Shown: positions 16,886 to 32,867 of the stretch, one piece after another
Numbering within the stretch: position 1 is the stretch's first letter
How the letters are laid out: each line of letters opens with the position of its first letter
Virus record (IMG/VR): IMGVR_UViG_2880372215_000005
DNA from: a virus
Taxonomy: Duplodnaviria; Heunggongvirae; Uroviricota; Caudoviricetes
Strand: one strand, 5' to 3'
Length of the DNA stretch: 56,474 bases
Translations under genes and position numbers: made by a program
The notes under the pieces: generated by a model
The model's database searches: none
What the model was told of the DNA's origin: nothing
The model's input: the letters and a program-made list of their open reading frames with translations, nothing else

Positions 16886-17602
16886 TTATCCGCCCGCACC
16901 ATTAACCGTTACCGTACACGCATCAGAGGTAATGCTCTGCGGCTGTTCTGCAGAATCCATTACCATGCAGGTATAAGCCCCCTTATCACCTGACTGCGCA
17001 TTGGCTTTACTGAAAGTGTCAGTAGTCTGTCCCTCGACCGGCTGACCATCCTTCTTCCAGGCGTATTTATAAGGCGGCGTTCCCCCGTTGACACTGACTG
17101 ACATTGTCAGCAGCGCACCGGTATTCACGGTAAGTGTCTTCTCCGGATTTTTCACAAACGCCAGCGGTACCACATAGGACACCGGTTTACCCTTCAGGCG
17201 AAGTGAAAACGTTGCAGCCACCACGCCGTTGGTACCGGATGACCAGGTGTGCTGACGCACTTCCGCCAGGAACTTAAAGCCCTTACCGGACGGAAACTGC
17301 ACCTTAAACGCATACACCGTGTCATTGTCATAGGCATCACGCAGGGCGTTCTGGGCCTGATTCAGATAAAAATTACCCGACATGGAAATCTCGGACGACG
17401 CCCCCAGACCGTTGATGTTCTCCTGCTCTGTGGAGCAGAGCGTGGTCACATCAATATCCTGTTTCTGACCGGCGGTGAACTGGACTTCCTTGATGGTGCA
17501 GTCCAGGCGCAGATATTCCGCCTTATCCATAGTTTCAGCAGTCGCCGGGGCAGATGAAATCATCACCTGCGTCAGCTGTGAGCGTTCATACAAAGCAGAC
17601 AT
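16886..17602 (-). CDS. V: major tail protein V with C-terminal Ig-like (Big_2) domain
   Basis: MSALYERSQLTQVMISSAPATAETMDKAEY... ; start at ATG 17602 preceded by GGAGG; C-terminus ...YTCMVMDSAEQPQSITSDACTVTV is Ig-like. Confidence 0.85.
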   Translation of the reverse strand: MSALYERSQLTQVMISSAPATAETMDKAEYLRLDCTIKEVQFTAGQKQDIDVTTLCSTEQENINGLGASSEISMSGNFYLNQAQNALRDAYDNDTVYAFKVQFPSGKGFKFLAEVRQHTWSSGTNGVVAATFSLRLKGKPVSYVVPLAFVKNPEKTLTVNTGALLTMSVSVNGGTPPYKYAWKKDGQPVEGQTTDTFSKANAQSGDKGAYTCMVMDSAEQPQSITSDACTVTVNGAGG

Positions 17603-17618
17603 TCTGCCTCCTGATAAT

Positions 17619-17640
17619 AAAAAAACCCGCACGCGGCGGG
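17619..17640 (-). terminator. terminator-like hairpin + T-run between the U-like gene and V
   Basis: minus-strand cccgccgcgtgcggg followed by ttttttt, immediately upstream of the V RBS; identical element at about 24905..24927 in duplicate copy B. Confidence 0.5.
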
Positions 17641-17669
17641 GTATGGGTTTTGTAGAAAAAAAGAAAAAG

Positions 17670-18014
17670 TCACACCGTGACCTGAAACTCCAGGGTTGCA
17701 CGGTAACAGCGGTTTTCCGGAATATAGTCCTGCATTTCACTGACGGATCCCGGGGCCAGCAGCATTATGGCTTCACGGGCGTCCTGACGTATCTGACGCG
17801 CCTGCGTCACAGTCCCGGCATAAACGTCTATCTGCACCGACACTGAGGACTCCGCCTGCCCGCCCATCACGTCCGCAGACACCGATGAAATCAGGCTGAA
17901 AACCACCCACGGAAGCGCCACCGACGGCCTGCCATCCAGCAGGGGGACCACATACGGGTACACCTGCCCGCCGGCAAGATGCGCCAGATAAGGATACAAA
18001 TCCGCCTCCGTCAT
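17670..18014 (-). CDS. tail terminator / tail completion protein (functional analog of lambda U)
   Basis: 114-aa ORF in the U position directly upstream of V; identical copy at 24949..25293. Confidence 0.6.
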   Translation of the reverse strand: MTEADLYPYLAHLAGGQVYPYVVPLLDGRPSVALPWVVFSLISSVSADVMGGQAESSVSVQIDVYAGTVTQARQIRQDAREAIMLLAPGSVSEMQDYIPENRCYRATLEFQVTV

Positions 18015-31142: not shown

Positions 31143-31154
31143 ATCAGCCTCCTG

Positions 31155-31180
31155 AAAATAAAAAAACCGCCGCAGCGGTT
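31155..31180 (-). terminator. terminator-like hairpin + T-run between TerL and the capsid gene
   Basis: minus-strand aaccgctgcggcggtt followed by ttttttt, ending at the capsid RBS; same element in copy A near 23848..23873. Confidence 0.5.
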
Positions 31181-31205
31181 CATGATGGTTACAGTGTGAA
31201 CAGGG

Positions 31206-32867
31206 TTATATGAAAAAAACCGCATATTCTTTCTTTTTCGGTTCCGGGTTAAGGGACATCAGGGAGACCGCATTGAACAGCGCCATCAGCGGGTCAATTT
31301 TTCCCCGTCCACTGGCCTGTTTGGTGATAAGAATGGCGTTACCTTTAGGCTCCACCCGGGCATTGCCGACACACCAGGCCATCAGGGGCTGGTCACCATG
31401 CACCAGCACCCCTTCAGCCAGTTTGCGCTCGGTGGTTTTAATGGCCCCGCCCAGTTTCCAGCCCTGGCTTATCCCCACCACAATTCCGTCGGGGATCCCG
31501 GCTTCCGCCAGTGAATCCAGAATCTGCCCCACCCCTGACGGGTCAATACCGATATGGTCCAGTAACTCAGCCTCATGAATGCGACGCACATATTCCGCCA
31601 CTTCCGCCGTGTCATCCCCGACACGCCGGACAATGGTCATATCTCCACAGGCAACAAGATCCTGAAACCGGGACGCCTCGCTCTTCCGTCGGACCACCGC
31701 GGTTTCATGCGCCCAGGCATGGCCCCAGCCCAGCCATTCGCGGGTTTCCCTGTCACGGCCAATCACGTACATTCCCAGCAGATCATCCAGGCCCCCGCCG
31801 TCAATCCCCACCGTCACCACATCAGCGCGCTGCAGGATATCGTCCAGGCTGACGCGCCTGCCCTGCTGCTCCCAGAAATCCGCACCCGCCCAGCGGTCAG
31901 AACGCAGGGCAAGACCAATTTCCACATTGGCATGTTTTGACATGAAGCCACGAAATGCTTCCTCACCAGCCTCCCGGGCTTTACGGTACTCCCGGTACAG
32001 AAAAGCCTCATCCACCGAATAACCGAGATTCGGGTTAACCATGGCGAGGTTTTCCATCAGCAGGTGAGCCCCGCTTTCCACCATTTCAGGAGGATGCTCA
32101 AAAATCACCGGCAGAAAGTGCGGATCATGAATTTTGCCGTCACGGACATCCCGGGCGTACTGCAGTTTCTGTCTGAACACCCCGGCTGGCGGCTCATTCG
32201 ACTGGGTGGTCGTATACACCACAAACCCTTCCGGGCGGGAGGCAAGGCCGCCTATGGCTTCACGTAACATGTCCTCCGCTTTGTACTGCTTGCCAAATAA
32301 CCACAGTTCATCAATCAGCGTCCCCACGGACTTGATACCGGATACCGTATTCGGATCGGCAGCCACCACCTTCAGGGTGGTGTCCGTCACCCTGTGGGTG
32401 ATGGTCCGGATATGTGTCTGCACCTGACAGAGGTCATCCAGATCATCGTCCCGTCGTACCATATCCCTGGCAGGGTTGAAGGCGTTAGCCGCCACCTCCA
32501 CGGTCGGGGCCAGAATGGTGTAGCCCGCCGCCTGCCGCCAGTTCAGTAACAGCGCCGTCATCATGATCCCGGCAGCCAGCGTGGACTTGCTGTTTTTCTT
32601 GGGGATAAGGATAAAAACTTCCTTGATATGGCGTACACCGGTCTGCGCATCGTAGGAGCCAAACAGGGCCGCCACCAGGTCAAACACCCACTGTGCGCAG
32701 GACTCCCCGAACGTCGGGCTGCCCGGTGCATCCACAATCCGCAGTTGTTTAAAAATCGCCAGGGCATGTGCGGCCTGCTCCGGATAAATCGGAGCCGGAA
32801 TAATCGACAGCCCCTTTTTCAGGCGCTCTGCCCAGTCCGGGCAGGCCGTGCTCCACACAGGTATCAT
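31206..32867 (-). CDS. terminase large subunit
   Basis: 553-aa ORF with ATPase region (..VFILIPKKNSKSTLAAGIMM..) and C-terminal nuclease region (..VVTVGIDGGGLDDLLGMYVIGRD..). Confidence 0.85.
   Translation of the reverse strand: MIPVWSTACPDWAERLKKGLSIIPAPIYPEQAAHALAIFKQLRIVDAPGSPTFGESCAQWVFDLVAALFGSYDAQTGVRHIKEVFILIPKKNSKSTLAAGIMMTALLLNWRQAAGYTILAPTVEVAANAFNPARDMVRRDDDLDDLCQVQTHIRTITHRVTDTTLKVVAADPNTVSGIKSVGTLIDELWLFGKQYKAEDMLREAIGGLASRPEGFVVYTTTQSNEPPAGVFRQKLQYARDVRDGKIHDPHFLPVIFEHPPEMVESGAHLLMENLAMVNPNLGYSVDEAFLYREYRKAREAGEEAFRGFMSKHANVEIGLALRSDRWAGADFWEQQGRRVSLDDILQRADVVTVGIDGGGLDDLLGMYVIGRDRETREWLGWGHAWAHETAVVRRKSEASRFQDLVACGDMTIVRRVGDDTAEVAEYVRRIHEAELLDHIGIDPSGVGQILDSLAEAGIPDGIVVGISQGWKLGGAIKTTERKLAEGVLVHGDQPLMAWCVGNARVEPKGNAILITKQASGRGKIDPLMALFNAVSLMSLNPEPKKKEYAVFFI

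Follow-up and report, generated by a model that had tools for sequence, protein, structure and literature searches.

The direct tandem duplication of a 7.3-kb head/head-tail-joining module in this prophage region is very probably an assembly artifact that is absent from the physical genome of the strain, Escherichia coli FORC_044, as judged from sequence comparisons. The region (here called the window, 56,474 nucleotides in its entirety) is a segment of the FORC_044 chromosome, NZ_CP016755.1 (assembly GCF_002220265.1). FORC_044 is an O157:H7 Sakai-like strain, with 6 mismatches and 2 gaps relative to O157:H7 Sakai across 93.7 kb of unique DNA; a literature search on the strain found no paper.

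A repeated head module where two prophage arms meet

The first-pass annotation had described a direct tandem repeat, and self-BLAST confirmed it, aligning 17373-24651 with 24651-31960 at 98.93% identity over 7,316 columns (E = 0). A repeat search of the window returned collinear exact blocks whose offset varies between 7,278 and 7,309 nt. The gene order was also correctly described as the same in both copies, from the 5' part of V to the 3' part of TerL, all on the minus strand (Table 1). The statement that the first copy, copy A, is frameshifted in at least five genes agrees with PGAP, which marks five of its coding sequences in this way (head closure, connector, portal, capsid/protease, and the TerL fragment). 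Copy B had been called largely intact, which is right insofar as it has 7 indels versus 43 in copy A, but its connector and portal genes are frameshifted as well, by single missing bases. The portal-region gene contains an array of ~162-nt repeats, and it is in this array that paralogue divergence is highest and the errors of copy A are densest.

Table 1. Features of the window and of the duplicated module
Feature	Coordinates	Strand	Content or remark	Basis
Chromosomal flank and Sp10-type right arm	1..17372	-	ompN', uspF; NleG effectors, tail fibre, Lom, J, sodC, tail genes, V 3' part	Sakai comparison and annotation
Copy A, head/head-tail module	17373..24651	-	Error-rich chimeric consensus; V 5' part, gp17, gp10-like, head closure, connector, portal, small ORF, protease-capsid fusion, TerL 3' 755 nt	Indels, allele switches
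Internal ~162-nt (54-codon) tandem repeats, copy A	19521..20174	-	In portal-region gene
Chimeric V'-TerL' reading frame	23898..24880	-	V' (first 229 nt) joined to TerL' (last 755 nt)	ORF list and PGAP
Novel junction	24632..24671		TerL 3' (end of copy A) to V 5' (start of copy B); breakpoint 24651/24652
Copy B, same head/head-tail module	24652..31960	-	Much cleaner than copy A	Comparison with module D and Sakai
~162-nt repeat array, copy B	26811..27473	-	4 units
Late region common to prophages	31961..36900	-	TerL 5' part, TerS, HNH endonuclease, lysis genes
Sp9-type left (early) arm	36161..56474	-	Lysis genes, tRNAs, methylase, paa, replication/immunity genes, exo, xis, int; ends at ompW attachment site	Sakai identity and annotation

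Comparison with Sakai (NC_002695.2) reveals that the locus is composed of the tail arm of prophage Sp10 (uspF side) fused to the early arm of prophage Sp9 (ompW side), and both the attachment-site flanks and the sequence identity fit Sakai Sp9 (ompW) and Sp10 (ttcA/uspF). The left 17.4 kb of the window is base-for-base Sp10: positions 1-6188 are 100% identical to Sakai 1,968,000-1,982,000, and positions 9372-17372 show 0 substitutions and 0 indels against Sp10, versus 5-48 differences per 500 nt against Sp9. The right 20.3 kb is Sp9, matching Sakai 1,752,000-1,778,000 (ompW plus the Sp9 left arm) at 99.985% identity, with 2 mismatches and 1 gap in 20,315 nt, but the Sp10 left arm at only 94%. 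The late region is virtually identical among Sakai Sp9, Sp10, and Sp12 (over the stretch ~29.7-36.6 kb of the window, Sp9 and Sp10 show 0-1 differences per 500 nt), and it is the long repeat that joins the Sp10 arm to the Sp9 arm.

The head-module gene order of the window is that of Sakai Sp10 and Sp9. In Sakai, however, the two prophages are separate, lying 106 kb apart at the ttcA-uspF and ompW sites with one head module each, whereas the window joins one arm of each prophage and carries the head module twice in tandem. The duplication is located exactly where the Sp10 and Sp9 arms meet. Both the hybrid nature of the locus and the position of the duplication at the joint had been overlooked in the earlier annotation. 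The match of the V fragment to Sakai Sp10 had suggested a plain Sp10 ("PPompW") prophage, a reading that was rejected because the ompW prophage in Sakai is Sp9 and the window is an Sp10/Sp9 hybrid.

Copy A reads as a consensus of mixed paralogues

At the 136 sites where Sakai Sp9 and Sp10 differ by a single nucleotide, copy A carries 56 Sp10 alleles, 55 Sp9 alleles, 21 gaps, and 4 other bases. These alleles are finely interleaved, with 34 switches across 106 informative sites and a median tract of 37.5 bp; modules B (copy B), C, and D of the same assembly have 2 switches each. Forty-five Sp10-only alleles and 6 Sp9-only alleles that are otherwise missing are present in copy A alone, and no genome matches this stretch at more than 97.3% identity. 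Each copy of a real duplication should be able to exist on one DNA molecule, and copy A cannot be reconciled with this; on its allele pattern, it is not the sequence of any single molecule.

The indels point the same way. Relative to the Sakai references, copy A has 43 indels, 41 of which are one-base deletions and 28 of which fall in the portal gene; deletions outnumber insertions 41 to 3, and there are only 18 private substitutions. The one-base deletions are concentrated at Sp9/Sp10 variant sites: 34 of the 41 are no more than 2 nt away from such a site, against an expected 8% (Fisher p = 5e-31), and the other deletions are homopolymer undercalls. A natural spectrum would have substitutions at least as numerous as indels, and indels unrelated to variant sites; copy A departs from it in both respects. 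Its indel rate of 5.9 per kb is far above the 0.02 per kb of the 93.7 kb of unique FORC_044 DNA, and this excess, with its bias toward deletions and homopolymers, is what a long-read assembly artifact would be expected to leave in one copy. Graph-consensus callers would be expected to drop bases at ~50:50 sites. The pattern in copy A is the mark of a consensus that was built from reads of more than one paralogue. Mosaicism through heteroduplex formation and mismatch repair was also considered as a natural source of the allele pattern and was rejected: long-patch repair is not known to yield 34 switches at a scale of ~40 bp with base loss at mismatches.

Copy B and the other head modules of the assembly

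The same assembly contains at least four other near-identical head modules, and the duplication therefore lies in a multicopy repeat that is as long as typical reads or longer. Positions 15279-37316 of the window align with FORC_044 prophage Y, the equivalent of Sp12, at 99.88% identity, including an identical block of 14.8 kb. Aligned with module D, the head module of prophage Y, copy B has no substitutions and 6 gap columns, and its substitutions relative to Sakai number 33 to Sp9, 99 to Sp10, and 14 to Sp12. Its haplotype is Sp10-type to ~25.7 kb, Sp9/Sp12-type at 25.77-28.0 kb, and Sp10/Sp12-type at 29.15-29.26 kb; this is not the sequence expected locally. Modules B, C, and D differ from one another by 0-6 substitutions (6 between C and D), and Sakai Sp9, Sp10, and Sp12 differ at 27-136 sites. 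That copy B has no substitution relative to the module of a third prophage implies that the assembly homogenized its paralogues.

These modules carry consensus errors as well. All 7 indels of copy B relative to the Sakai references are deletions within 2 nt of paralogue variant sites, module C has 8 indels, and the lysozyme genes of three FORC_044 prophages show the same C6-to-C5 homopolymer error. The junction query matches 9 places in FORC_044 and 8 in Sakai, which we interpret as five head modules versus four, that is, one extra module.

The TerL-V junction

How widespread is the junction that the duplication creates? It is present in 1 of 5,426 complete E. coli genomes, and it had no match in 50,697 phage records or among viral contigs and genome contigs, although the normal TerL and V contexts, used as positive controls, matched 55 and 57 viral contigs. 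An independent sighting, which a real duplication would lead one to expect in relatives, phage particles, or other assemblies, was not obtained in these collections. Microhomology at the breakpoint amounts to 2 nt, TT. The chimeric V'-TerL' reading frame that spans it would be in frame according to CDS-coordinate arithmetic, is interrupted by a one-base deletion near 24173, and is annotated by PGAP as two partial pseudogenes.

Two natural sources for the breakpoints were rejected. They are not the mosaic boundaries of this phage family, since internal alignment ends in 107 viral contigs cluster elsewhere (at ~14.5, 27.3, 34.5, and 37.3 kb) and not at the breakpoints. Recurrent real recombination driven by similarity between V and TerL was discarded as well; a comparison of the two sequences found chance matches of 9-13 nt only, none of them at the junction.

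The only look-alike TerL'-V' junction is that of E. coli O157 644-PT8 (NZ_CP015831.1, ~3.5095 Mb). As in FORC_044, the same module is repeated in tandem; its upstream copy is rich in errors whereas the downstream one is clean, and a truncated TerL is fused to a truncated tail gene. It differs from FORC_044 in being an independent record (MinION/Canu) with different breakpoints, which lie 84 and 150 nt from those of FORC_044, a coincidence that is partly one of ascertainment by the 600-nt query. The 644-PT8 junction falls exactly on an NcoI site, and the authors of that genome state that they manually inserted a 200-kb contig, with NcoI sites on an optical map as the insertion points. It is a hand-made splice and a precedent for an artifact; a manual join is documented for the 644-PT8 junction only.

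Wider rearrangement of the FORC_044 chromosome

The Sp9 head module of FORC_044 was sought ~170 kb downstream, where other O157 genomes have it, and was not there. It lies instead at 2.45-2.61 Mb, in a block that is displaced and inverted in the assembly. This 168-kb block is inverted between two ISEc8 copies, adjoins the Qin-site prophages, and comprises the Sp9 right tip, the yciE-trp-topA-fnr-ttcA core, the Sp10 left arm, a head module, and Sp9 tail/effector genes. In addition to the flanking ISEc8 copies, the assembly contains the reciprocal Sp10L/Sp9R hybrid. Such a topology fits that expected of an inversion between ISEc8 copies followed by one between Sp9 and Sp10, as far as sequence layout can tell, and is like the large prophage- and IS-mediated chromosomal rearrangements of O157:H7 (Iguchi 2006, as cited in PMC8991562). 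Mis-scaffolding at repeats would produce the same large-scale topology. Homologous exchange conserves copy number and alleles, whereas FORC_044 has an extra module and a nonhomologous TerL-V joint, neither of which can be created by such exchange.

A possible assembly origin of the duplication

Several Sakai lambdoid prophages (Sp9, Sp10, Sp12, and others) have in common a head/packaging module of 7-15 kb that is nearly identical among them, and in the FORC_044 assembly the Sp10 tail arm is linked to the Sp9 early arm through this module. In the most probable account, the chromosome was assembled from noisy long reads. The left contig or unitig would have run from the Sp10 tail side into TerL and the right one from the Sp9 early side into V, and the two ends, overlapping by 7.3 kb, may have been concatenated without being merged. 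Copy A, as the terminal part of the left piece, would have been covered by few reads from more than one paralogue, and its consensus would in consequence flip between Sp9 and Sp10 alleles and lose bases at many sites of disagreement. The right piece, copy B, has a consensus that the assembly also assigned to two other prophages. The sequences themselves show the chimeric copy A with its deletions at variant sites, the identity of modules B, C, and D, the unique junction, and flanks that are all Sakai-identical; the exact software or manual step behind the join is one that we infer.

Near-identical contig ends that overlap and are of low quality are a recognized problem of long-read assemblies, one that Circlator addresses (PMC4699355). 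The FORC_044 duplication resembles such untrimmed overlaps in being a direct repeat with one low-quality representation, an arbitrary nonhomologous junction, and a position in a multicopy repeat. The overlaps described there are the two ends of a circular contig, whereas the FORC_044 overlap is internal to a finished chromosome, which would imply a contig-to-contig join or a gap-filling step.

Some points count against an artifact. Real prophage-mediated rearrangements are common in O157 (PMC8991562), and a structural oddity at a prophage joint in this lineage is not impossible in principle. The proximity of the breakpoints to those of 644-PT8 is explained neither by repeat boundaries nor by natural mosaic boundaries. 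The record was deposited as a finished "complete genome," which was weighed on the same side.

Alternative explanations

A real tandem duplication, carried by the strain or by part of the culture, could have arisen by illegitimate recombination between TerL and V, with copy A poorly polished since five near-identical modules left no unique placement for the reads. We consider this unlikely. The structure does stand in a deposited complete genome, and the 2-nt microhomology fits illegitimate recombination; repeat modules are generally poorly polished in this assembly, as the indels of C and B indicate, so the layout is not disproved by the errors of copy A. Nevertheless, the interleaving of Sp9-only and Sp10-only alleles at a scale of ~40 bp means that the sequence of copy A, at least, cannot be real. 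The junction has no second occurrence in the 5,426 genomes or in any phage or viral collection searched, and the strain is otherwise identical to Sakai, which has one module fewer. An additional 7.3 kb would also make a lambdoid genome hard to package, a point that is relevant only if the phage is inducible. There is likewise a small chance that at least a subpopulation of the culture physically carries the TerL-V joint, as an Sp9 × Sp10 recombinant with a 7.3-kb head-module duplication; the duplication would then have arisen at the crossover zone in a burst of prophage-driven rearrangement in an otherwise Sakai-identical strain. If true, the scrambled consensus of copy A would reflect structural heterogeneity of the culture, not pure software error.

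It is very doubtful that copy A is the genuine Sp10 module and copy B the genuine Sp9 module, brought together by a deletion-type illegitimate joint between Sp10 TerL and Sp9 V. Such an event would account for the Sp10 left flank and the Sp9 right flank, and it agrees with the Sp10-only alleles of copy A and the Sp9-like central 2.2 kb of copy B. It does not agree with the other alleles: half of those in copy A are Sp9, and blocks Z1 and Z3 of copy B are Sp10/Sp12-type, in a copy that shows no substitution relative to module D. The deletion would have removed the 106-kb core segment (topA, trp operon), yet this segment is present elsewhere in the assembly, as is a complete reciprocal hybrid prophage with its own head module, and the module count would have stayed at four instead of reaching five.

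The slimmest chance falls to an old genuine duplication in a defective prophage whose copy A decays by natural frameshifts, for which five frameshifted genes beside a largely open copy B might speak; it is disfavored because the deletions sit on paralogue variant sites or homopolymers and the alleles alternate every ~40 bp, and further by the unnatural mutation spectrum, by the lack of any relative with the duplication among those searched, and by the time needed for ~40 frameshifts, which would have brought far more substitutions than a strain with only 6 single-nucleotide differences from Sakai in 93.7 kb would suggest. The first-pass annotation had left the choice between a defective phage and an assembly artifact; the second half of that choice is supported, and the decayed copy implied by the first is contradicted. 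The frameshifts of copy A, judged by where they fall, are best regarded as sequencing errors and not as pseudogenization.

Implications

The RefSeq "complete genome" NZ_CP016755.1 would accordingly be read as containing a false 7.3-kb duplication and homogenized prophage paralogues, with about ten spurious pseudogenes or strain-unique proteins, and it may also hold a putative 168-kb rearrangement. Prophage typing of O157:H7, pseudogene counts, structural-variation surveys, and pangenome work that use this record would inherit its errors. The analysis also provides a diagnostic that needs no reads: single-base deletions that pile up on paralogue-variant sites, together with allele interleaving at a scale below 100 bp, flag a repeat copy as a chimeric consensus. 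For the biology of the prophages themselves, the consequence is small, as the tandem module represents no new element or mechanism.

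Layout and origin of the duplicated module

Self-comparison of the window yields a single long direct match, copy A (upstream) against copy B, with 98.93% identity over 7,316 columns, and a repeat search of the window resolves it into exact collinear blocks with a drift in spacing from 7,278 to 7,309 nt. Gene order is the same in each copy (see the table), and the first-pass annotation had placed and described this head/head-tail module correctly. The copies are strongly asymmetric: copy A lacks ~35 single bases and copy B lacks 3, many of these losses falling in homopolymers, and substitutions concentrate at 19.1-20.7 kb and 21.85-21.95 kb. 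PGAP annotates five frameshifted CDSs in copy A and two in copy B, and at the junction it places truncated TerL and tail genes side by side. Among Sp9, Sp10, and Sp12, the lambdoid prophages of Escherichia coli O157:H7 Sakai (NC_002695.2) used as references, the portal repeat region diverges more than any other part of the module. The portal CDS is flagged as frameshifted by PGAP in all genomes examined; the Sakai annotation gives two ORFs in Sp10 and one 2,580-nt ORF in Sp9 and Sp12.

Features of the window and of the FORC_044 record
Feature	Position	Strand	Remarks
Right end of Sp10 with uspF, ompN, pfo	window 1-6188		100% identity to Sakai
Short diverged internal direct repeat	window 4606-4844		~130 nt, 71% identity; tail-fibre gene region
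Sp10 segment	window 9372-17372		zero differences from Sakai Sp10
Copy A	window 17373-24651	minus	V first 229 nt, gp17, gp10-like, head closure, connector, portal, small ORF, protease-capsid fusion, TerL last 755 nt
Copy B	window 24651-31960	minus	same genes
Portal repeats, copy A	window 19521-20174	minus	four tandem ~162-nt (54-codon) repeats in the large "portal" gene
Portal repeats, copy B	window 26811-27473	minus	same
TerL-V joint	window 23898-24880	minus	V codons 1-76 (229 nt) fused to TerL last 251 codons (755 nt)
ompW and Sp9 left (early) arm	window 36161-56474		99.985% identity; only 94% to the Sp10 left arm
Lysozyme gene	window ~36175-36707	minus	frameshifted
Copy D	record 2.415-2.424 Mb		in prophage Y, the Sp12 equivalent
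ISEc8, two direct copies	record 2,438,277-2,440,589 and 2,606,162-2,608,474		bound the 168-kb block; boundary of two Qin-site prophages
Core segment (106 kb)	record 2,446,625-2,552,486		inverted
Copy C	record 2.58 Mb		in the reciprocal hybrid prophage (Sp10 early arm, Sp9 tail/effector arm)

Sakai has Sp9 at the ompW site and Sp10 at the ttcA/uspF site, two separate prophages in the same orientation, 106 kb apart, with the core segment yciE-trp-topA-fnr-ttcA between them. The arm-specific identities therefore show the window to be a hybrid, its tail arm coming from Sp10 and its early arm from Sp9; the duplicated block is located exactly where the two arms meet. Outside, the source strain FORC_044 is essentially Sakai: across 93.7 kb of unique DNA, both backbone and prophage, it shows 6 mismatches and 2 gap columns.

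Copy A as a mixture of paralogues

Alignment of the Sakai Sp9 and Sp10 head modules shows 147 differing columns, of which 136 are SNPs. At these SNPs, copy A matches Sp10 at 56, matches Sp9 at 55, is gapped at 21, and has a different base at the other 4. Its alleles switch 34 times over 106 informative sites (median tract, 37.5 bp), compared to 2 switches in every other copy. Relative to both references, copy A has 41 single-base deletions. Of these, 21 coincide with a variant column and 34 are no more than 2 nt from one, although only 8% of columns lie that near (Fisher P = 5e-31); the 7 deletions of copy B are all placed in the same way. The few deletions elsewhere are undercalled homopolymers (for example, A8 to A7, C7 to C6, and A5 to A4). 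The indel rate reaches 5.9 per kb, ~280 times that of unique DNA in the same assembly, and the portal region of copy A finds a best identity of 97.3% among the genomes in the collection, every homologue being longer by 28 nt. Judged by this pattern, copy A is not a real sequence and looks like a consensus called where noisy reads of two paralogues were mixed in roughly equal parts. A graph-based consensus caller may leave out a base at sites where neither allele attains half of the coverage. The first-pass annotation had offered a defective phage as one of two readings; allele mixing and deletions at paralogue variants are unlike the decay of a duplicated gene, and a defective phage with a decayed copy finds no support.

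Homogenized modules elsewhere in FORC_044

Two further head modules, copies C and D, lie elsewhere in the record. Copy B differs from copy D by no substitutions and lacks 6 of its bases, and 6 sites distinguish C from D, compared to 27 to 136 sites among the Sakai counterparts. The window and prophage Y have a 14.8-kb block in common (window 15279-37316) at 99.88% identity. Alleles exclusive to Sp10 (45 sites) and to Sp9 (6 sites) are lost from B, C, and D and present only in copy A. Since reciprocal recombination conserves alleles, this pattern is best read as misassignment of the true Sp9 and Sp10 module reads. The accessions of two tape-measure proteins, WP_089158663.1 and WP_089158665.1, adjoin those of other proteins of the FORC_044 repeat modules; judged by position, the two resemble chimeras of Sp10/Sp12 and Sp10/Sp9 type.

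Other frameshifts were also seen in this assembly. The lysozyme gene of the window is broken by a C6-to-C5 homopolymer change compared to Sakai, and the identical change in the lysozyme genes (RS12885 and RS14250) of two other FORC_044 prophages points to a homopolymer error that is systematic in the long reads or to reuse of one consensus. Outside the window, PGAP flags tonB, nhaB, and an FecCD permease as frameshifted, and the locus that contains tonB has one 1-nt gap relative to Sakai; ompN is flagged too but is also a pseudogene in Sakai. The Qin-site prophage has many more frameshifts (tape measure, J, tail fibre, and C40 peptidase); consensus errors thus cluster in prophage DNA that is repeated.

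A junction unique to one genome

How rare is the TerL-V junction? A 600-nt junction probe finds a full-length match in 1 of 5,426 complete E. coli genomes, FORC_044 itself (NZ_CP016755.1; human stool, Seoul; window at ~2,839,701-2,896,174 of the record). The junction is absent from all 50,697 phage genome records searched, and its exact 40-mer has no match in IMG/VR viral contigs or GTDB species-representative genomes, the controls being found in 55 (normal TerL context) and 57 (normal V context) viral contigs. Matches to the probe occur at 9 places in FORC_044 compared to 8 in Sakai, which we read as five modules versus four, exactly one extra in FORC_044. The parental contexts have only "TT" in common at the joint. 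By frame arithmetic, the V'-TerL' fusion is in frame but broken by a one-base deletion near 24173; the in-frame joint is probably a coincidence, a one-in-three chance of no evident significance.

A look-alike occurs in the E. coli O157 genome 644-PT8 (NZ_CP015831.1, ~3,509,530), where, as in FORC_044, an error-rich module is followed by a TerL'-tail' junction and a clean module, with breakpoints 84 and 150 nt away from those of FORC_044. That junction falls exactly on an NcoI site (CCATGG), with AACCATGG before the joint and TTTC after it, and the authors' account of the assembly states that a contig was put in by hand at NcoI sites of the optical map; this documents the junction as a manual splice, and this RefSeq record also has a false ~7.25-kb tandem duplication. 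The nearness of the breakpoints is partly ascertainment, because the probe detects only junctions within ~300 nt of that of FORC_044. Neither natural mosaic boundaries nor V/TerL sequence similarity explains it.

Chromosomal context and most likely history

The core segment missing between the window's arms lies inverted elsewhere in the record, flanked by the Sp9 right tip on one side and by the Sp10 left arm, copy C, and Sp9 tail/effector genes on the other. This reciprocal hybrid and core lie ~230-390 kb upstream of the window start (2.45-2.61 versus 2.84 Mb). In Sakai, the ISEc8 copies of Sp9 and Sp12 are mutually inverted, and thus an ISEc8-by-ISEc8 inversion followed by an Sp9-by-Sp10 inversion, which would proceed via the shared late region, would give exactly the FORC_044 topology. 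O157 is well known for rearrangements of this kind (PMC8991562, citing Iguchi 2006). Two inversions and misscaffolding of contigs that end at these same repeats fit the 168-kb topology equally well; under either, homologous exchange cannot make the nonhomologous TerL-V joint or the extra module.

The most likely history, held with high confidence, is an assembly artefact: two sequence ends, both spanning one 7.3-kb stretch of a multicopy prophage module, would have been concatenated instead of merged, copy A being the low-coverage, mixed-paralogue end. Near-identical overlaps and low-quality contig ends are recognized in long-read assemblies (PMC4699355). An assembly artefact was the alternative offered by the first-pass annotation, and the chimeric copy A, the homogenized copies, and the unique junction bear it out. 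A real duplication in which poor polishing alone spoiled the upstream copy is unlikely, and the remaining readings together carry very little probability. As a biological feature, the duplication is most likely not real; the finding is useful for flagging the data quality of a RefSeq complete genome.
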